Below are positions 8,236-27,775 of a stretch of 32,000 nucleotides of DNA, piece by piece (positions within the stretch are counted from its first letter, which is position 1; every line of letters begins with the position of its first letter). The stretch comes from Candidatus Electronema halotolerans (lineage in GTDB: Bacteria; Desulfobacterota; Desulfobulbia; Desulfobulbales; Desulfobulbaceae), in contig OW818675.1 in the NCBI GenBank assembly GCA_942493095.1, forward strand, positions 3,120,001 to 3,152,000, read 5' to 3'. The notes beneath the pieces are model-generated. The model did no database searches and was not told where the DNA came from. It saw only the letters and a list, made by a program, of their open reading frames with translations. The position numbers and the translations under genes are program-made.

Positions 8236-9063
8236 ATGATGAATTTGCGAACTGTCTTTCTGCGTGTTGTTCTCTTGCAGACACTGCTTTTCTTGCTGCT
8301 TGCCCCGCTTGCGCTGCGGGCAGCAACTCCGGCGGTGCCGTCCAGCCCTCCTGAGCGAGTGGTTGATCTTGCCAGCATCATTGACTCCACTTTGGAGGGA
8401 GAGCTTGCCTCGGCTCTGCGCGAGCTGGAAAAAAAGACAACCGCTCAGATGGCCATTCTGACGGTCAGCTCGCTGGACGGCCAGGATATTGAGTCGTTTT
8501 CGCTTCACGTTGCTGAACAATGGAAACTTGGTCAAAAAGGTAAGGACAACGGCCTGCTGCTCACCGTGGCCTTGAAGGAGCGGAAATATCGCTTTGAGAC
8601 CGGCTACGGACTGGAGGGTGCGCTGCCGGACAGCCTGCTGGGCAGCATCGGCAGAAAAAATATGGTGCCATTCTTCAAGAAAGGCGAATACGGCGAAGGC
8701 ATTGCAGCAGCGACCACGCAGGTGTTTGCTGTTCTTGCCAAGCATTATAACGTGCAGCTCGACGGCGTGAAGGAGCTGCCTGAATCTGAACCAAGTTTGA
8801 TTTATTCTATAGGCTGCAAGATTGTCAACTTTGGATTGAAGATTTTCATGTGGATTGCAATTGTGGTATTTATTGGTATTGTACTGACAATAATAATCCT
8901 CGCCATCTTCGATAAAGACAAAAGTTCTTGCTGTAGCAGATCATCCGACAATGATTCGTGGAGCAATAGCTCTGACAGCAGCTCATGGAGCAGCAGTTCC
9001 GACAGTGACTTCAGTGGTGGCGGTGGTGATTTTGGTGGCGGCGGTGATTCCGGCGACTGGTGA
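8236..9063 (+). CDS. TPM-domain protein (YgcG-like) with a TM helix and a Ser/Gly-rich tail
   Basis: Signal or TM N-terminus, then a TPM core (ILTVSSLDGQDIE.F...V.E.WKLGQKGKDNGLLL.VAL.ERKYR.ETGYGLEG.LPD), a TM helix (IFMWIAIVVFIGIVLTIIILAIF) and a GGGGDFGGGGDSGDW tail. The stop overlaps the upstream extension of the downstream lemA ORF. Confidence 0.85.
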   Translation: MMNLRTVFLRVVLLQTLLFLLLAPLALRAATPAVPSSPPERVVDLASIIDSTLEGELASALRELEKKTTAQMAILTVSSLDGQDIESFSLHVAEQWKLGQKGKDNGLLLTVALKERKYRFETGYGLEGALPDSLLGSIGRKNMVPFFKKGEYGEGIAAATTQVFAVLAKHYNVQLDGVKELPESEPSLIYSIGCKIVNFGLKIFMWIAIVVFIGIVLTIIILAIFDKDKSSCCSRSSDNDSWSNSSDSSSWSSSSDSDFSGGGGDFGGGGDSGDW

Positions 9064-9092
9064 TCAATCTTTCATTCAATGGAGCATATATC

Positions 9093-9671
9093 ATGAGCAA
9101 AGGCATCAAGGCTGTTCTGATCATCTTAGGAGTGCTTGCTGTTCTCTCGGCAGGCGTGGTCTTATTGGGCATCGGCCAATACAATAAGGCTGTGGCCTTG
9201 GACGAAGAGGTCAATAGCCGATGGGCGCAGGTGGAAAACCAGCTCAAGCGACGCTTTGATCTGATTCCCAACCTTGTCGAGACAGTCAAAGGCTATGCCA
9301 AGCACGAGAAGGATATCTTTGAAAATTTGGCCAAGGCCCGCACCAGTTATTTTCAGGCCGGTTCCATCCAAGAAAAGGCCGTTGCTGCGGGCGGACTGGA
9401 AAACGCCATCTCCCGGCTGCTCATGCTTCAGGAAAATTATCCTGATCTCAAGGCCAATGAATCCTACCTGAAGCTGATGGACAGCTTGGAAGGCTCAGAA
9501 AACCGGATTGCAGTGGAACGGAAACGGTACAATGAAGCGGTGCAGGCGGTCAACACGTACCGCCGAACTGTGATCGGGCGGATTTTTGCCGCGTTGGCTG
9601 GAGTTGAGGCAGCGGAATATTTCAAGCTGCCAGAAGGTGAGCAGGAAGTGCCGAAAGTAAAATTCGACTGA
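9093..9671 (+). CDS. lemA: LemA family protein
   Basis: N-terminal TM helix, then W.QVENQLKRRFDLIPNLVETVKGYAKHEK..F and YPDLKAN..Y..L...LEGSENRI.V.R..YN, which are hallmark LemA. The ATG at 9093 is preceded by GGAG; the ORF track start is 9060. Confidence 0.9.
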   Translation: MSKGIKAVLIILGVLAVLSAGVVLLGIGQYNKAVALDEEVNSRWAQVENQLKRRFDLIPNLVETVKGYAKHEKDIFENLAKARTSYFQAGSIQEKAVAAGGLENAISRLLMLQENYPDLKANESYLKLMDSLEGSENRIAVERKRYNEAVQAVNTYRRTVIGRIFAALAGVEAAEYFKLPEGEQEVPKVKFD

Positions 9672-21337: not shown

Positions 21338-22780
21338 ATGAATCGCGATATTTATCAGGAGCCTTTGGTCAGCCGCTACACCAGCCAATCAATGCAGGAG
21401 CTGTTCTCGGAACGTTTCAAGTTCAGCACGTGGCGTAAGTGCTGGATTGCCTTGGCTGAGGCGCAGCAGGAGCTGGGCTTGGCAATGGTCAGCCAGGAAA
21501 TGGTCGATGAGCTGAAGGCTCATGCTGAGGACATCGACTTTGCGGCGGCAGCGGCCAAAGAAAAGGAAATCCGCCATGATGTCATGGCCCATGTTTACGC
21601 CTACGGCCTGCAATGCCCCAAGGCGGAGGCGATTATTCATCTTGGCGCAACCTCGCAGTTTGTGGTCTGCAACACGGATTTGATTATTCAGAGACGCGCC
21701 TTGCGGCTGATCAAGAAAGCCTTGGTCAACGTCATTGCCAACTTGGCCGCCTTCTGCCGCACGTACAAGGACATGGCAACGCTCGGCTTCACCCATTATC
21801 AGCCTGCCCAGCCGACCACGGTCGGCAAGCGCAACACCCTGTATATCCAAGACCTGCTCATGGATTTGGACTATGTGGAGCTGCTGGAGCAGCAGGTCAA
21901 GGCGCGGGGCGCAAAAGGCACGGTCGGCACCCAGGCCACCTTTCTGGAGCTGTTTCAAGGTGATCACGCCAAAGTGCGCGAGCTGGACCGGCTGGTGGCG
22001 GCCAAGCTCGGCTTTGCCCAAGTTTTCCCGGTCACAGGTCAGACCTATCCGCGCAAATTGGACATGAAAACTGCCGAGACCTTGGCAGGAATCGGGGCCT
22101 CAGCACACAAGTTTGCTGTTGATCTGCGCCTGCTCTCCAACCTCAAGGTGCAGGAGGAGCCATTTGAGCAGAAGCAGGTCGGCAGCTCGGCTATGGCCTA
22201 CAAGCGCAACCCGATGCGCTCCGAGCGGATGACCGGTCTGGCCCGCAAGCTGATGGGCCTGCCTGCCAACTTTGCCGCCACTGCCGCCAATCAGTGGTTT
22301 GAGCGGACGCTGGACGACTCAGCCATCCGCCGCATGGACATGGCCCAAGCCTTTCTGCTCACAGATGCGATTCTCAAACTGTACGTCAACATCACCAGCG
22401 GCATGGTGGTCTATCCCAAGCAGATTGAGCGGCATCTGCGGGCCGAGCTGCCCTTCATGGCAACGGAAAAAATCCTCATGGCCTGCGTCGGTCTGGGCGA
22501 AAGCCGCCAGGAAATGCACGAGGTCATCCGCGAGCATTCAGTGGCCGCCGGTCTGGCGGTCAAGGAGGAAGGCTTGGACAACGACCTGCTCGTCCGCTTG
22601 GCCAAAGATCAGCGCATTCCTTATTCAATTGACGAGCTGGAGGAGCTGATCGGCAATCATCAGGAATTTGCTGGCCGCGCTCCGCAGCAGACCGAGGAAT
22701 TCCTTGATGAGGCAGTTGCGCCGGTGCTGACGAAATATCAGGATTTGCTTGGCGGGGTGGATGCCTCGCTCAAGGTTTGA
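21338..22780 (+). CDS. purB: Adenylosuccinate lyase
   Basis: 480 aa with N-terminal PL.SRY.S..M...FS....F..WR..W..LAEAQ, the fumarate-lyase signature GSSAMAYKRNP, and the THYQPAQPTT motif. Confidence 0.93.
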   Translation: MNRDIYQEPLVSRYTSQSMQELFSERFKFSTWRKCWIALAEAQQELGLAMVSQEMVDELKAHAEDIDFAAAAAKEKEIRHDVMAHVYAYGLQCPKAEAIIHLGATSQFVVCNTDLIIQRRALRLIKKALVNVIANLAAFCRTYKDMATLGFTHYQPAQPTTVGKRNTLYIQDLLMDLDYVELLEQQVKARGAKGTVGTQATFLELFQGDHAKVRELDRLVAAKLGFAQVFPVTGQTYPRKLDMKTAETLAGIGASAHKFAVDLRLLSNLKVQEEPFEQKQVGSSAMAYKRNPMRSERMTGLARKLMGLPANFAATAANQWFERTLDDSAIRRMDMAQAFLLTDAILKLYVNITSGMVVYPKQIERHLRAELPFMATEKILMACVGLGESRQEMHEVIREHSVAAGLAVKEEGLDNDLLVRLAKDQRIPYSIDELEELIGNHQEFAGRAPQQTEEFLDEAVAPVLTKYQDLLGGVDASLKV

Positions 22781-22786
22781 ACCGCT

Positions 22787-23014
22787 GTGCGCACCTTGTA
22801 TCTCCGCATCCGGCCTGACCGGATCAGCCTGCTGCGGTTTCTGCTGGAGGGCTACGAGGGCTTGGCCGTGCTCTCGACTGTGGATATGCGGATAGGCTTG
22901 GTCAAGCTGCTTGTGCCTGCTTCGCGGCAGGCCGAATTATGGGGTCTGCTGACGGCGATCTGTGAAGAATTGGTGCAGGACGAAGATAAGCTTGTTGCAA
23001 CCTATCGAGAATGA
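22787..23014 (+). CDS. DUF4911 domain protein
   Basis: 75 aa. The segment YLRI.P..I.LLRFLLEGYEGLAV.STVD...G.V.L resembles the DUF4911 proteins I recall following purB in deltaproteobacterial-type genomes. GTG start 6 nt after the purB stop. Confidence 0.65.
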   Translation: MRTLYLRIRPDRISLLRFLLEGYEGLAVLSTVDMRIGLVKLLVPASRQAELWGLLTAICEELVQDEDKLVATYRE

Positions 23015-23343
23015 GCATGAAAAAACTGATTGAATTTGAGCTGGATGGCCAGCCGGTCTATGTTGAGGCGGAGGTGTCCGAGGCGGAAGGAATGCGCCGG
23101 GTGAGCCGAGGCGGCGGCGATGAGCCGGAAAGGGCTGAGTCCCGCTTTGTTGAGGCCGTGGCCCGGATCAAGCCTGCCGCTGAGGCAGTGCTGAACGCCT
23201 TCCGGGAGATGAACACCCCGGATGAGATCGCGCTGGAATTCGGCCTGAACTTTTCCGCCAAAGCGGGCGTGGTCTTTGCCGCGACCGACAGCTCGGCCAC
23301 CTTCAAAGTTTCGCTGAAATGGAAGAACGAGCGGCAGTCCTGA
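23011..23343 (+). CDS. Trypco2-like (trypsin co-occurring domain 2 / CU044_2847-like) small protein
   Basis: 110 aa. The ATG overlaps the DUF4911 stop (ATGA); an alternative ATG is at 23017. The N-terminus IEFELDG.PVYVEAE and the C-terminal core IALEFGLNFSAKAGVVFAATDSSATFKVSLKWK fit the Trypco2 pattern as I recall it. It sits 7 nt upstream of a trypsin-STAND gene, the context that defines the family. Confidence 0.65.
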   Translation: MSMKKLIEFELDGQPVYVEAEVSEAEGMRRVSRGGGDEPERAESRFVEAVARIKPAAEAVLNAFREMNTPDEIALEFGLNFSAKAGVVFAATDSSATFKVSLKWKNERQS

Positions 23344-23350
23344 TGCGGCC

Positions 23351-26300
23351 ATGCGTTCCCTCTCCTTAGATTCCGCCCTTGTCCGCATCCTGATTGACGA
23401 CCGCAGCCCGCGTGAATCTAAAGGTGCGGGCTTTCTCGTCACGCCGCAGCATGTCATCACCTGCGCCCATGTAGTGAATGATGCTCTTGGCCTCCCGCAG
23501 CGTGCTGTAGAGCAGCCTGATCTTCCGCTTCTTTTTGATTTCCCTCTGCTGGCCGGACAGCCTTTCGTTCAAGCCAAAATTCTGCGCTGGTTTCCGGTGC
23601 AGGAGGATTCTGCCATCGGCGAGCTGGAGGACATTGCGGTGCTGGAGTTGCTGCCGGACAGCCCTTTGCCTGCCGGAGCGCAGCCTGCACCGCTGGTTGT
23701 GCCTGACGAAAAGGAGCACGTCTTTTTTGCGTGGAAAGTGCGCATGTTCGGCTTTCCGTCCTTTGCCCCGGACGGCACCTGGGCCAATGGCGTTTTGCAG
23801 GGGTTGACAGGCAAAGGCTGGGCAGAAATCCATCATGCGGACAGCGGCAGCGTTGCGCCGGGCTTCAGTGGCACAGCGGTTTGGTCAGTGCGAGAGAATG
23901 CGGTCTGCGGCATGACTGTGAGCAGTTTGAGCAGCGCAGCCTCGTACATGATTCCGGCTGCCGCGCTGATTCAAGCCTTTCCTGAGATGGACAGGTTCAG
24001 CCGCCCGGCCAATCCCTACCGAGGCATGGAAGCGTTCCGGGAAAAGGATGCCCGTTTCTACTTTGGCAGGGAGGCGGATGCGGACACGCTGAAAGAGAAA
24101 ATCGACACGCAGCCCTTTACTGCCGTTATTGGCGCGAGCGGCAGCGGCAAGTCTTCGCTCGTCTTTGCCGGACTGCTGCCCATGCTGCGACAGAGCGGCG
24201 ACTGGCTGATCTGTGCCTGCCGTCCCAAGCAGCAGCCTTTTCACGAGCTGGCCGCCTGTCTGATTCCCATGCTCTACGAGGACGAACTGGAGCGGATCAA
24301 GAAAAGCAGGCTCTGCGCTGCTGATCTGCGTTCCGGCGACATGCTGCTCTCTGACCTGCTCCGGCGGATTGCTGACCGAAACGACTGCCGCCGTCTGCTT
24401 CTGCTGGTTGATCAGTTTGAGGAACTCTACACCCTGAACACGGACAGAGCTGCGGCCCGCGCCTTTGTCAGCCTGCTGCTGGAGGCGAAGCAGGCCGAAG
24501 GTTTCAGGGCGGTCATCACCTTGCGGGCGGATTTTCTCGAAGCCGCGCTCGGTGATGCAGGCTTTGCCGAGACCCTGAACGCCTGCCCGCCGCTGCTCCT
24601 GTCGCCGATTGACAGCCACGGGCTGCGGCAGGCGGTGGAGCAGCCTGCAAAGCTGCTCGGCATCCGTTTTGAGGCTGGGTTAGTTGATCTGATTGTTACG
24701 GATGTGGGCAATGAGCCGGGCAGTCTGCCGCTGCTGGAATTTTGCTTAACCCAGCTCTGGGAGCAGCAGACCTTCCGGCAGATCAGTCATGCGGCCTACA
24801 AGGACAGCGGCGGAGTGCAGCAGGCTCTGGCCCGTCATGCTGAGGCGGTGTATGCCGGATTTGCGGCAACGGAGCAGGAATCTGTCCAGTTGATTTTCCT
24901 TAAGTTGGTGCGGCCTGGTCAAGGCACGGAGGACACCCGGCAGGTGGCGGCCTTGGCGGATTTTCAGGAAGAGCAGCGCGGACTGATCAAGCAGCTTGCT
25001 GATCAGCGGCTTTTGGTCACGTCCGGGGATAAGGCCGGGCAGCAGGTTGAGGTGGTGCATGAGGCTCTGATTCGGCATTGGCAGACCTTGCGCAAATGGG
25101 TGGATGCGGAGCGGGAGTTTCTTGTCTGGCAGGAGAAACTGCGGGTTTTGCTGCGGCAGTGGCAGGAAAGCGGCCATGATGAAGGAGCGTTGCTGCGTGG
25201 TTTGCCGTTGGATGAAGCGTTGCAGTGGCGGGGCAGTCATGCAGGGTATTTGGGAGAAGAGGAGCTGGGTTTTGTCAGGGAGAGTGAGGAGGCGCGGAAG
25301 AAGCAGCGGAGGCGGAAAGGCATTGCTGCTGCGGCAGGAATGCTGCTTGCTGCCGTGGTGATGGCGGTGTTTTTTGTGCTGTGGCAGGATGCGGAGCGGC
25401 AGAAGATTGTTGCTGATCAGGAAAGGCGACACGCTGTTGAGCAAAGAGGAATTGCTGAACAGCAGACGCTGGCATCCAATTACAATCTTGCCAAGGCGTT
25501 TGAGGAGAAGGCGTTGACTGCGTTGAAAACAGCCAATGGACAAGGCGATGTCGAATACAAAAAGGCAGTACTCTTTGCCTCGGCGACGCTAGCCCAAAAA
25601 ATTCCAGAGACTGCAACCGCGATGGAATCTCCCTACATAGGCAGCCTTTTCTCACTTGTAGTCTTCCATTCTGGGTTGGCGGAACTGGCCGTGCTCAGAG
25701 GGCATGAGAATTCTGTCAGCAGTGCGGCCTTCTCGCCGGACGGGGAAAAAATCGTTTCCGTTTCTGACGACCATACCGTGCGGATTTGGGATGCGGCAAG
25801 CGGCAAGCAAGTCGCTCTGCTCACAGGCCATGAGTATCCTGTCACCAGCGCAGCCTTCAGTCCTGATGGCAAAAAGATCGTTTCAGCTTCTGAAGACAAT
25901 ACCGTACGGATTTGGGATGTCGACAGCAGCAAAGAACTGGCTGTCCTCAAAGGTATTTCCTACATGTCTGGCTTCAGTCCTGATGGCAAAAAAATAGTTT
26001 CAGCCTCTTGGGATACTGTACGGATTTGGGATGTCGACAGCGGCAAAGAACTGGCTGTCCTCAAAGGACATGAGAGTAGTGTGAACAGCGTGGCCTTCAG
26101 TCCTGATGGCAAAAAGATCGTTTTAGCTCCTGAAGACAATACCGTACGGATTTGGGATGTCGACAGCAGCAAAGAACTGGCTGTCCTCAAGGGACATGAG
26201 AGTAGTGTGAACAGCGTGGCCTTCAGTCCTGACAACAGCAAAATAGTCTCCGCTTCCGACGACAATACGGTGCGGATTTGGGATGCAGCAAGCGGCCAGC

Positions 26301-27775
26301 AAGTTGCTCTGCTCACAGGCCATGAGAATTCTGTCCGCAGCGCAGCCTTCAGTCCTGATGGCAAAAAGATCGTTTCAGCCTCTTGGGACCGTACCGTACG
26401 GATTTGGGATGTCGACAGCGGCAAAGAATTAGCTGTGCTCAAAGATATTTCCTACATGTCTGGCTTCAGTCCTGATGGCAAAAAAATAGTTTCAGCCTCT
26501 TGGGATACTGTACGGATTTGGGATGTCGACAGCGGCAAAGAACTGGCTGTCCTCAAAGGACATGAGAGTAGTGTGAACAGCGTGGCCTTCAGTCCTGATG
26601 GCAAAAAGATCGTTTCAGCTTCTGAAGACAATACCGTACGGATTTGGGATGCGGACAGTGGCAAAGAGCCGCTCATACTCAAAGGGCAGGAAAAAACTGT
26701 CCGCAGCATGGCCTTCAGTTCTGACGGCAAAAAAATAGTTTCAGCATCCGAGGACTATAAGGACTATACCATACGGATTTGGGATGCGGACAGCGGCAAA
26801 GAACTATCCATTCTCAAAGGACATGTGAAAACTGTCAGACGCAGCAGAGTGAGAAGGTCAAGAAGACGCATTTCCCTGCCCCCTGATGATAAAGAAAATG
26901 TTTCAGCTTCCGATGAGGACAAGGACAATACCGTGCGGGTTTGGAATGTGACCAGTGACAAAGAACCTGCCTTTCTCAAAAAAAATGAGGAAAGCGTCCT
27001 CAGCCCAGCCTTCAGTCCTAATGACAAACAAAACGTTTTAGCTTCCGAGGATAAAGGTTATGAGGAACCTGCACGTATCCTCAGCGTGGCCTTCAGTCTT
27101 GACAGCAAAAAAATAGTTTTAGCTTTGGAGGGTAATACCTTGCAGATTTGGGATGCGGACAGTGGCAAAGAATTAGCCAATCTCAAAGAGCATGAAAAAA
27201 CTGCCCCCAGTATAGACTTTGACAGTGGATATAAAAAAATAAGTCGTGTAGAGTTTGGAGAAACATCCTCTAGGATTTGGGATGTCAATAACAAAGAATT
27301 GGCTATTCTGAAAGGTAATGAAAAAACTCTCAGCAGAATAGCTTTCAGTCCTGATGACAAAAAAATTGTTTCCACTTCAGAGGATAATACCGTACGGATT
27401 TGGGATGCAGCCAGTGGCAAAGAATTAGCTGTGCTCAAAGGTATTGCCTACATGGCTGGCTTCAGTCCTGATGGCAAAAAAATCGTTTCCCCTTTTAGCG
27501 ACCATGTGCGAATTTTGGACTTGAAATGCTACCAACTTTTCCTCCAAAACTATGCCAAACCCACCCCCCTCTACCGCACCTTCATCCAAGCCGTAAAATT
27601 CCTCTGGCAATTAGACGTGCAGGGCCTTGAAATCGTGCATAAGGAACGCAGCCCAGCAGACATGGAACGCTTCGGCAGCCTGCTTGCACCCCCGCCGCCC
27701 GGCCAAAGCAAATTCGACCAAGTGCTGGAATGGGCAGAAAAGCAGCAGGGCGGTAGCGGACAACAAGCTGATTGA
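23351..27775 (+). CDS. Trypsin-like serine protease - STAND (nSTAND1/NACHT-like) P-loop NTPase - TM helix - WD40 beta-propeller fusion protein (1474 aa)
   Basis: Protease triad contexts: ITCAH40VV, D94IAVLEL and GFS173GTAVW. STAND entry motif NPYRGMEAF.EKDA.FYFGRE. Walker A is GASGSGKSS (24131-24157) and Walker B is LLLLVDQFEE (24395-24424). A helical/winged-helix-type region reaches about 25300. A hydrophobic helix GIAAAAGMLLAAVVMAVFFVLW follows RKKQRRRK (25319-25384). About 15 WD40 blades occupy 25700-27520. It is a single uninterrupted ORF. Confidence 0.9.
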   Translation: MRSLSLDSALVRILIDDRSPRESKGAGFLVTPQHVITCAHVVNDALGLPQRAVEQPDLPLLFDFPLLAGQPFVQAKILRWFPVQEDSAIGELEDIAVLELLPDSPLPAGAQPAPLVVPDEKEHVFFAWKVRMFGFPSFAPDGTWANGVLQGLTGKGWAEIHHADSGSVAPGFSGTAVWSVRENAVCGMTVSSLSSAASYMIPAAALIQAFPEMDRFSRPANPYRGMEAFREKDARFYFGREADADTLKEKIDTQPFTAVIGASGSGKSSLVFAGLLPMLRQSGDWLICACRPKQQPFHELAACLIPMLYEDELERIKKSRLCAADLRSGDMLLSDLLRRIADRNDCRRLLLLVDQFEELYTLNTDRAAARAFVSLLLEAKQAEGFRAVITLRADFLEAALGDAGFAETLNACPPLLLSPIDSHGLRQAVEQPAKLLGIRFEAGLVDLIVTDVGNEPGSLPLLEFCLTQLWEQQTFRQISHAAYKDSGGVQQALARHAEAVYAGFAATEQESVQLIFLKLVRPGQGTEDTRQVAALADFQEEQRGLIKQLADQRLLVTSGDKAGQQVEVVHEALIRHWQTLRKWVDAEREFLVWQEKLRVLLRQWQESGHDEGALLRGLPLDEALQWRGSHAGYLGEEELGFVRESEEARKKQRRRKGIAAAAGMLLAAVVMAVFFVLWQDAERQKIVADQERRHAVEQRGIAEQQTLASNYNLAKAFEEKALTALKTANGQGDVEYKKAVLFASATLAQKIPETATAMESPYIGSLFSLVVFHSGLAELAVLRGHENSVSSAAFSPDGEKIVSVSDDHTVRIWDAASGKQVALLTGHEYPVTSAAFSPDGKKIVSASEDNTVRIWDVDSSKELAVLKGISYMSGFSPDGKKIVSASWDTVRIWDVDSGKELAVLKGHESSVNSVAFSPDGKKIVLAPEDNTVRIWDVDSSKELAVLKGHESSVNSVAFSPDNSKIVSASDDNTVRIWDAASGQQVALLTGHENSVRSAAFSPDGKKIVSASWDRTVRIWDVDSGKELAVLKDISYMSGFSPDGKKIVSASWDTVRIWDVDSGKELAVLKGHESSVNSVAFSPDGKKIVSASEDNTVRIWDADSGKEPLILKGQEKTVRSMAFSSDGKKIVSASEDYKDYTIRIWDADSGKELSILKGHVKTVRRSRVRRSRRRISLPPDDKENVSASDEDKDNTVRVWNVTSDKEPAFLKKNEESVLSPAFSPNDKQNVLASEDKGYEEPARILSVAFSLDSKKIVLALEGNTLQIWDADSGKELANLKEHEKTAPSIDFDSGYKKISRVEFGETSSRIWDVNNKELAILKGNEKTLSRIAFSPDDKKIVSTSEDNTVRIWDAASGKELAVLKGIAYMAGFSPDGKKIVSPFSDHVRILDLKCYQLFLQNYAKPTPLYRTFIQAVKFLWQLDVQGLEIVHKERSPADMERFGSLLAPPPPGQSKFDQVLEWAEKQQGGSGQQAD
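25700..27520 (+). repeat. In-frame tandem array of ~15 WD40-coding repeats (126-nt units plus 114-nt short variants)
   Basis: Consensus blade: GHExSVxSxAFSPDGKKIVSASxDxTVRIWDxxSGKELAVLK. Segment 25954-26159 matches 26446-26651 with 2 mismatches, including a 170-nt perfect run. Blades 9-13 are degenerate. Confidence 0.9.

Follow-up and report, generated by a model that had tools for sequence, protein, structure and literature searches.

What does a small gene do when it lies directly upstream of a giant gene that joins a trypsin-like protease, a STAND-type NTPase, and a WD40 repeat array in a single product? We addressed this question for a 32,000-nucleotide (nt) stretch of DNA, referred to herein as the window, from Candidatus Electronema halotolerans, a multicellular filamentous cable bacterium of the Desulfobulbaceae. 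An original prediction, made from this DNA alone, had placed two open reading frames (ORFs) 7 nt apart and read them as a sensor–switch–effector system of the kind described by Kaur, Aravind, and colleagues among nucleoside triphosphate (NTP)-dependent conflict systems. Both ORFs are present on the + strand, at 23011..23343 (110 amino acids, aa) and 23351..27775 (1474 aa), with a gap of 7 nt. The sensor–switch–effector reading is backed by the protein families, the invariant residues, the folds, and the adjacency of the two genes. We consider it fairly probable that the pair is a two-gene protease–effector conflict module, that is, a cell death or immunity switch, in a membrane-anchored, receptor-like form. 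For this architecture, Pfam and NCBIfam already contain curated models, homologues number in the thousands, a conceptual framework has been published, and a sister module has been dissected experimentally. The pair is thus a real but ordinary representative of a class of cell-suicide/immunity modules that is very common and has been catalogued before. The two genes are as follows.

23017..23343, + strand: Trypco1 gene, 108 aa from the annotated ATG (PF19493, NF041216, 100% identical NCBI protein)
23351..27775, + strand: giant gene, 1474 aa (trypsin-like protease, nSTAND1 NTPase, transmembrane helix, WD40 array, C-terminal tail)

The start of the Trypco1 gene is probably the ATG at 23017, because the publicly annotated identical protein, recorded as a 'Trypsin-co-occurring domain-containing protein' from Ca. 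Electronema halotolerans, is 108 aa long. An alternative in-frame ATG at 23011 yields the 110-aa form; it shares bases with the stop codon of the DUF4911 gene that precedes it (ATGA, 23011-23014).

An intact protease and NTPase core

The N-terminal part of the giant protein contains the protease motifs TCAHVV (aa 37), DIAVLEL (aa 94), and GFSGTAV (aa 171), followed by NPYRGMEAF (aa 221) and FYFGRE (aa 236) of the NTPase. The corresponding domains and catalytic residues are located at the following positions.

23423..23914, + strand: Trypsin_2 (S1, chymotrypsin-fold) protease, aa 25-188 (PF13365, E 5.6e-12, 47 bits, cut-off 27.6)
23468-70, 23630-32, and 23867-69, + strand: protease triad H40, D94, and S173
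24014..25183, + strand: nSTAND1 NTPase, aa 222-611 (PF20703, E 3e-115)
24131-24157, + strand: Walker A, GASGSGKSS, aa 261-269, with K267
24395-24424, + strand: Walker B, LLLLVDQFEE, aa 349-358, with D354 and E357/E358

The claim that the protein carries a trypsin-like protease with an intact triad was borne out by the motifs, the family match, and an S1 fold in the structural model. In an alignment of ∼120 homologues the triad is near-invariant, with H40 found in 112/112, D94 in 115/115, and S173 in 117/119 sequences. The STAND P-loop NTPase was likewise recovered with all of the motifs that had been quoted for it. The match to nSTAND1 covers profile positions 1-378 of 379 at 386-390 bits (cut-off 27.1), where the value of 390 was obtained when the region was scanned alone. 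Across the same homologues, K267 is conserved in 119/119 and D354 in 120/120, and E357 and E358 are conserved likewise. The Pfam scores of the protease, the NTPase, and the WD40 array all lie well above anything that chance would give. The protease–nSTAND1 core as a whole has more than 2,500 homologues.

An AlphaFold2 (AF2) model of aa 1-640, built from 47 sequences, was confident (pLDDT 88.9, pTM 0.79). Foldseek searches of the PDB with this model matched the N-terminal domain to Esp, HtrA1, and DegS (TM-scores 0.65-0.71, normalized to target length) and the NTPase to the archaeal Walker-type ATPases PAB2304 and SSO1545 and to Orc1/Cdc6 AAA+ proteins. A sequence search of the PDB with the protease and the NTPase returned nothing significant, and the folds were found via the model search instead. 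The original prediction had also referred to Avs and bNACHT as anti-phage STAND proteins with repeat sensors. By profile searches the giant protein belongs to neither family, since the NACHT profile (PF05729) scored 16.9 bits, below its cut-off of 26.7, and PADLOC gave no Avs hit.

Some close relatives of the nSTAND1 core from cable bacteria and Desulfogranum (P0122, P0125, and P0131) carry a C-terminal HisKA/HATPase in place of the transmembrane helix and WD40 array, and no transmembrane helix was detected in them; P0131 is also without a Trypsin_2 hit. These histidine-kinase relatives link the same nSTAND1 switch to two-component-type signaling.

The small protein is Trypco1

The small ORF had been described as Trypco2-like, and this assignment has to be replaced. 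In a search of Pfam, the ORF matched PF19493 Trypco1 with 93.3 bits (cut-off 24.6, E 1.5e-26) over profile positions 5-98 of 98, and in NCBIfam it matched the CU044_2847 family NF041216 with 69.7 bits (cut-off 23, E 2.5e-19). Identity with Trypco2 (PF19631) was ruled out, as Pfam returned Trypco1 alone, with nothing for Trypco2 when E-values as high as 10 were admitted. The Trypco1 family is large, comprising 2,542 clusters at 50% identity (E ≤ 1e-3), and nearly all of its members are stand-alone proteins of 100-130 aa.

The predicted layout of Trypco1 is a hairpin, a disordered loop, a helix, and a second hairpin (AF2 monomer), with four strictly alternating amphipathic strands and one helix. 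The protein has no enzymatic motif, and a profile search of the PDB gave spurious helical hits only, such as syntaxin (E above 0.02). Members of the family stop 2-8 residues past an invariant Trp (W102), and only 25-39 of 60 diverse members extend beyond position 105. A conserved Ile-Arg-Arg motif was not found across the family. A candidate protease site lies in the loop, which has the following features.

23077..23145, + strand: predicted disordered charged loop, aa 21-43 (AF2 pLDDT below 50 at residues 21-39)
23089-23109, + strand: loop island G25-x-x-R28-[VA]29-[SGA]30-R31, candidate protease recognition/cleavage site

The information content of the loop is 0.5-1.3 bits per column and rises to 1.7-2.7 bits in the island, which is the sole semi-conserved feature of the loop. 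Hypothetically, the G-x-x-R-V-S-R island could be the site at which the adjacent protease acts.

We also observed a 7,917-aa protein (P0293) in which 23 separate stretches match the N-terminal hairpin part of Trypco1 (profile positions 2-46). This protein may be a giant repeat protein of Trypco1-like hairpins, or the matches may be a compositional artifact.

Trypco1 and the protease evolve as a unit

The gene neighborhood of Trypco1 was analyzed in 46 loci from GTDB species genomes, 41 of which had enough downstream sequence. A trypsin-like protease ORF lies directly downstream on the same strand in 32/41 loci, in 17 of these fused to nSTAND1, and three more loci have a divergent protease upstream of Trypco1. 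The expectation that the small ORF recurs beside trypsin genes, the very neighborhood from which the Trypco1 family was originally defined, was therefore confirmed. In one locus from a Binatia metagenome-assembled genome (L029, 3911-5836), Trypco1 is followed by a caspase/CHAT-like protein with an HFAGHG…NAC signature, identified by eye only, which suggests that Trypco1 can pair with cysteine proteases too.

The distances among Trypco1 sequences and those among the adjacent proteases are correlated (r = 0.83 over 29 loci, 0/2000 permutations), a value to which shared phylogeny contributes. Two paralogous loci within single genomes fall into two lineages, and the Trypco1–protease pairs co-segregate with them, which indicates that Trypco1 and the protease evolve as a unit. 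The taxa that carry the pair are mostly multicellular or filamentous and include cable bacteria, Marithrix, Parabeggiatoa, Thiothrix, filamentous cyanobacteria, and actinomycetes. Kaur et al. describe the same bias.

Trypco1 and the protease–STAND gene are separated by small cassettes of toxin–antitoxin appearance in several loci of cable bacteria and Marithrix. Judged from visual inspection, these are of the RelE/ParE-like plus ribbon-helix-helix (RHH), PIN/VapC-like, AbrB/VapB-like, and MazF/PemK-like plus RHH types, and they lie at the following positions of their loci.

L006, 8321-9261: toxin–antitoxin-like cassette
L008, 3759-4529: toxin–antitoxin-like cassette
L014, 8327-9151: toxin–antitoxin-like cassette
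L016, 8324-8797: toxin–antitoxin-like cassette
L027, 8312-9081: toxin–antitoxin-like cassette

Elsewhere the protease–nSTAND1 gene is fragmented into many short ORFs (L030, 9171-10945) or split in two (L022, 8197-10353; L026, 8197-11326). These broken genes are likely pseudogenes or assembly errors and fit a rapid turnover of the module.

A membrane helix and a sensor predicted outside the cytoplasm

Between the NTPase and the repeat array, the single hydrophobic helix that had been proposed was recovered; its consequence for the topology had not been drawn in the original prediction.

25319..25384, + strand: single transmembrane helix, aa 657-678, GIAAAAGMLLAAVVMAVFFVLW (Kyte-Doolittle 2.66 over 19 aa)

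A basic stretch, RKKQRRRK, stands directly before the helix, and the 15-residue flanks contain eight Lys/Arg residues on the N-terminal side and four on the C-terminal side. With a strict hydrophobicity cut-off, a transmembrane helix is found at the same place, ∼400 aa past Walker A, in 53 of 90 long homologues. The N-terminal flank is the more basic one in 57/62 homologues that bear the helix, with a mean of 5.5 versus 2.8 Lys/Arg. Based on the positive-inside rule, here and in these 57 homologues, the giant protein is predicted to be N-in, C-out, which leaves the protease and NTPase on the cytoplasmic side and puts the WD40 array outside the cytoplasmic membrane. If so, the ligand that is sensed would probably be periplasmic or extracellular, in contrast to Avs and bNACHT. 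An outside sensor also fits the sister proteins that bear CHASE2, periplasmic-binding-protein, Reg_prop, or FGE/lectin domains instead of WD40. As a prediction, this topology has precedents. Evans et al. (2025) list 'transmembrane STAND ATPases' among the sensors linked to Pepco, their name for the Trypco proteins (bioRxiv 10.1101/2025.11.14.688446), and Doré et al. predict periplasmic sensor domains for some related STAND proteins.

A WD40 array with signs of a separate evolutionary regime

The sensor had been described as about 15 WD40 blades. The domain assignment stands; the count does not, as the search for repeated 38-45-aa units with GH…WD signatures revealed 14 complete blades plus one partial blade, which is embedded in blade 11. 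The parts of the array and the region behind it are as follows.

25670..27520, + strand: WD40 array, 14 blades (aa 774-1390) plus a partial blade (PF00400, E 9e-116, 10 stretches)
25746..26759, + strand: recent duplication of a four-blade, 492-nt block (TRF period 492, 2.1 copies, 88% matches)
26786-26947: blade 10, with an Arg-rich insertion, RRSRVRRSRRRISLPPDD
26948-27154: blade 11, with a partial internal blade duplication
27521..27772, + strand: C-terminal non-repeat tail, aa 1391-1474 (no significant Pfam hit)

Fourteen blades would fit two seven-bladed propellers. Blades 1-8 are near-identical, three blades are short with 38 aa (blades 3, 7, and 14), and the region of the distal propeller is far less regular than that of the proximal one. 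TRF reported periods of 126 and 492 nt in the array. The longer period corresponds to the block duplication, for which the DNA identity is 89.7% between blades 2 and 6, 95.6% between blades 3 and 7, and 98.4% between blades 4 and 8. Differences among the regular blades are concentrated just past the GH dipeptide and in the S-x-D-x-T turn. In WD40 structures, these positions form the loops of the top face. Among orthologues and paralogues, the number of blades varies from ∼5 to 18. It should be noted that the Arg-rich stretch of blade 10 was considered as a frameshift artifact and that this was ruled out, since the other two frames contain stops.

The exact 1474-aa product was absent from the protein collection. 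Two independent short-read assemblies of the same species end at the start of the WD40 repeats, at window position 25562 (L001) and 25875 (L002), and their core is 100% identical to the window save for one mismatch in L001. The full-length product is thus not on record because short-read contigs break where the array begins, and such genes are therefore systematically truncated in metagenome catalogues.

The giant gene also contains a sharp break in codon composition, as seen in the G+C fraction at third codon positions (GC3).

Host genes (purB, DUF4911, TauE, histidine kinase, parC-like, hdrA-like): GC3 0.68-0.75
Trypco1: GC3 0.74
Protease: GC3 0.65
nSTAND1: GC3 0.71
Transmembrane helix and linker: GC3 0.56
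Blades 1-8: GC3 0.52
Blades 9-11: GC3 0.48
Blades 12-14: GC3 0.36
C-terminal tail: GC3 0.62

The break separates 25271-27772 from 23017-25270. The same shift was found in all of the full-length relatives examined (12/12, among loci L004-L027), in which the sensor half is below the core in GC3. Sensors may have been swapped, recombining arrays may mutate with an AT bias, or selection on codons may be relaxed. The low GC3 and the recent block duplications both suggest that the sensor half of these genes evolves rapidly and under a regime of its own.

Comparison with known systems

Kaur et al. (2020) described Trypco1 and Trypco2 as mutually exclusive neighbors of trypsin-like peptidases in NTP-dependent conflict systems (PMC7159879), and Kaur et al. 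(2021) named nSTAND1 and reported trypsin among its N-terminal effectors (PMC8195603). The present pair resembles their trypsin–nSTAND1 systems in its families (PF19493, PF13365, and PF20703), its gene order, the multicellular bias, and the variable C-terminal repeat or lectin sensors. Nothing essential differs; the particulars here are the cable bacterium, the transmembrane helix, and the 14-blade WD40 array. In the Kaur papers, Trypco1 and Trypco2 were introduced mainly in ternary vWA–MoxR (VMAP) systems, whereas neither MoxR nor vWA stands beside the pair, and the protease is fused directly to nSTAND1.

The closest experimental precedent is the Streptomyces subrutilus module of Evans et al. 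(2025), who jointly renamed Trypco1 and Trypco2 'Pepco' (bioRxiv 10.1101/2025.11.14.688446). In that work, SsPepco formed SDS-resistant 9- to 10-mer β-barrels, the adjacent trypsin–Avs4 protein cut a 2-kDa C-terminal tail from it after Ile97, and the truncated SsPepco killed Escherichia coli as a β-barrel pore. This constitutive barrel is hydrophobic on its outer face, encloses a charged lumen, and carries an amphipathic helix at its base; the tail that is removed is charged or Pro-rich and is cut after a conserved Ile. Protease tetramers of Avs2 and Avs4 are described in the same study. The two modules share a gene for a protein of ∼110 aa just upstream of a giant trypsin–STAND–sensor gene and, if our reading is right, the same logic, in which a sensor leads to oligomerization, protease activation, cleavage of the small partner, and cell death. 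They differ in that the partner is Trypco1 rather than Trypco2, the NTPase is nSTAND1 rather than Avs4, and the sensor is a WD40 array predicted outside the membrane rather than a cytoplasmic portal-binding domain. The earlier statement that no such pair had been characterized is therefore outdated for the sister Trypco2–trypsin–Avs4 module and still stands, in the searchable literature, for Trypco1 and for the nSTAND1–transmembrane–WD40 architecture. A search of the literature on cable-bacterial defense systems yielded nothing specific to the Trypco1/protease–nSTAND1 module.

At a more general level, the order of effector, STAND NTPase, and repeat sensor is that of the Apaf-1 apoptosome, Avs, and bNACHT, and Apaf-1 also senses via WD40 propellers. 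The output is a protease in Apaf-1 (caspase-9) and in protease-type Avs likewise; in the giant protein, the protease is fused rather than recruited. Unlike these cytosolic proteins, the NTPase here belongs to the nSTAND1 clade, and the transmembrane helix would put the sensor across the membrane. For the topology only, bitopic receptor kinases such as PknD of Mycobacterium tuberculosis are presumably an analogy, with a cytoplasmic catalytic module, a single transmembrane helix, and an extracytoplasmic β-propeller. Their output is a kinase and not a STAND-controlled protease, and they are presumably unrelated in sequence to the giant protein.

A proposed mechanism and its alternatives

We regard as established which domains are present, that their active sites are intact, that the topology signal is conserved, that the two genes are adjacent, and that they co-evolve; from this we infer ligand sensing, oligomerization, the substrate, and toxicity in the following sequence. 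The giant protein would be a bitopic inner-membrane protein with the protease and nSTAND1 inside and the double WD40 propeller outside. By analogy with Apaf-1, Avs, and NLR proteins, a periplasmic or extracellular ligand would bind to the variable top face of the propellers and release autoinhibition. The nSTAND1 domain, whose Walker A and B motifs are intact, would then bind NTP and oligomerize. The clustered trypsin-like domains would become active by proximity, as suggested by the Avs2 and Avs4 tetramers. Lastly, the protease would cleave Trypco1 and convert a latent small protein into a toxic effector, by which the cell would be killed or arrested. This last step is proposed because of the strict adjacency, the co-evolution, the mutual exclusivity with Trypco2, and the experimental fate of Trypco2. 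Within the filament of a cable bacterium, a cell that is infected or damaged would be sacrificed.

Several findings count against this proposal. No defense model of PADLOC v2.0.0 matched either protein, so the check for a recognized defense system came out negative; at E up to 10, its hits were confined to mads models, matched weakly through the P-loop, and to RT-Protease_XI, matched weakly through the protease. The silence of PADLOC lowers the claim that the pair is a catalogued defense system, not the claim that it works like one. A defense-island context was ruled out, as the rest of the window consists of housekeeping genes. The AF2 monomer of Trypco1, from a 29-sequence alignment, is of low confidence (pLDDT 50.7), and its strand pattern is equally compatible with a pore barrel and with an ordinary α/β sandwich. 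The distal blades of the sensor, 9-14, are diverged and irregular, with a poor consensus in blade 12, and the sensor may be partly degenerate.

The remaining points of this kind concern the relationship of Trypco1 to Trypco2. SsPepco, whose sequence was taken from the supplementary table of Evans et al. (2025), belongs to Pfam Trypco2 (E 5e-18), in line with the term 'Trypco2 β-barrel' in their supplementary legends (bioRxiv 10.1101/2025.11.14.688446). Trypco1 lacks a counterpart of the ∼20-aa C-terminal tail that is cleaved in Trypco2. Homology of the two families, whether direct or by circular permutation, found no support, as all hhalign runs gave probabilities of ≤1.7%. The close Trypco1 alignment (A1) reached 0.24%. 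The diverse one (A2) reached 1.4%, whether the target was SsPepco by itself or a Trypco2 profile built from 91 sequences, and circularly permuted A2 reached 1.5-1.7% in local and 0.1% in global mode. The sole part that aligned was an 18-column β-hairpin motif. The order of elements also differs, since Trypco2 has an N-terminal helix, then strands, and then the tail, as opposed to the hairpin–loop–helix–hairpin of Trypco1, and the A[RK]I|RR cleavage motif is a feature of Trypco2 that is not found in Trypco1. Given the lack of detectable homology and of the cleaved tail, the pore mechanism of Trypco2 is not simply transferable to Trypco1.

If Trypco1 is cleaved, its lack of a C-terminal tail makes it more likely, as a hypothesis, that the cut falls in the disordered charged loop, at the G-x-x-R-V-S-R island. 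We put forward, tentatively and as a possibility rather than an expectation, that Trypco1 is a non-homologous counterpart of Trypco2 with a mechanism of its own, namely a latent effector licensed by cleavage of an internal loop, under an outside-in transmembrane STAND receptor that monitors the periplasm through its diversifying WD40 propellers. If true, STAND immune proteins would include an NLR-like death switch that fires in response to a signal from outside the cytoplasm, which has so far not been shown for any of them.

The tail-less Trypco1, devoid of an enzymatic motif, could instead regulate the protease, whether as an adaptor, as a chaperone, or by stoichiometric inhibition in the manner of an 'antitoxin', in which case the protease itself would be the effector and, after the STAND switch had fired, degrade cellular or invader proteins. 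Adjacency and co-evolution are equally expected for an inhibitor–protease pair, Doré et al. (2023/2024) call trypco1 an 'adapter' domain, and caspase-like proteases that have no effector still confer defense (Evans et al.). However, all of the protease-linked partners that have been tested (Trypco2, EACC1, MBL, α/β-hydrolase, and gasdermin) are latent toxins that are cleaved, and the mutual exclusivity of Trypco1 and Trypco2 beside the same protease type suggests equivalent roles. The pairing with a caspase/CHAT-like protein in the Binatia locus is also easier to envision if Trypco1 is a modular effector than if it inhibits one protease specifically. For these reasons we regard a regulatory Trypco1 as unlikely and retain cleavage of Trypco1 as the preferred final step.

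The irregular distal blades raise the question of whether this copy of the module is decaying, with a sensor that no longer works. The Arg-rich insertion in blade 10, the partial duplication in blade 11, the poor consensus of blade 12, and the strongly atypical GC3, down to 0.36, could be read in this way, as could the fragmented copies in related loci (L030, L022, and L026) and the missing record of the exact product. However, the 4.4-kb frame is uninterrupted and all catalytic residues are intact, the oddity of blade 10 is not a frameshift, and the gap in the record is explained by the short-read breaks. The 14 blades, moreover, fit two complete seven-bladed propellers. A decaying copy is accordingly very improbable, and we continue to treat the pair as a functional conflict module.

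The module matters beyond this locus, as the mechanism of Trypco1, the outside-in topology, and the composition of the sensor concern the whole family. The Pepco pore mechanism was demonstrated on Trypco2 and not on Trypco1, and in cable bacteria, sulfur-oxidizing filaments, and many cyanobacteria most trypsin–nSTAND1 genes are paired with Trypco1. Since Trypco1 is not detectably related to Trypco2 and has no tail, its mechanism is a separate question, one that can be addressed directly with the present pair. The family-wide transmembrane topology predicts a large group of STAND switches that sense signals outside the cytoplasm. The periplasm of cable bacteria is continuous along the filament. 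If these organisms employ modules of this type to sacrifice single cells in an electrically coupled filament, this would bear on how infection or damage is contained in multicellular prokaryotes.

Genomic surroundings

The pair is tightly packed behind two genes of the host chromosome, with no predicted promoter or terminator in between.

21338-22780, + strand: purB (adenylosuccinate lyase), two genes upstream of Trypco1
22787-23014, + strand: DUF4911 gene (E 3e-16), between purB and Trypco1

Consensus-based promoter and terminator scans around the pair gave scores no better than those of shuffled sequence. The module may be co-transcribed with the purine-biosynthesis operon. The purB–DUF4911–Trypco1 arrangement is specific to Ca. 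Electronema halotolerans, and conserved synteny with the purB, DUF4911, and parC-like/topoisomerase neighbors was found in 0/46 loci of other genomes.

These surroundings bear on whether the giant protein is an immune receptor at all. A non-immune receptor could respond to an envelope cue, such as damage, contact with non-kin, or a developmental signal, with regulated proteolysis that leads, for example, to cell death or fragmentation of the filament. The housekeeping neighborhood and the tight packing after purB–DUF4911 are consistent with such a role, and the sensor is predicted outside the membrane, where the phage proteins sensed by Avs (terminase and portal) are not found. Sister proteins replace WD40 by histidine-kinase, CHASE2, PAS/GAF, or periplasmic-binding-protein domains, which are typical of signaling, and the multicellular enrichment is compatible with developmental or kin-recognition roles, as in the fungal HET/NWD proteins (Kaur 2020, PMC7159879). 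However, the position of the module is not conserved, its copy number is variable, several copies are pseudogenized or split, the repeat arrays turn over fast, and toxin–antitoxin cassettes have been inserted. Conflict systems typically show these properties, whereas core developmental genes do not, so that we find a non-immune receptor quite unlikely, even more so than a regulatory Trypco1, and keep to the conflict module.

Elsewhere in the window and unrelated to the module, a gene for a TPM-domain protein with a YxzE-like C-terminus forms a pair with the adjoining gene for a LemA-family protein (8236-9671, + strand).

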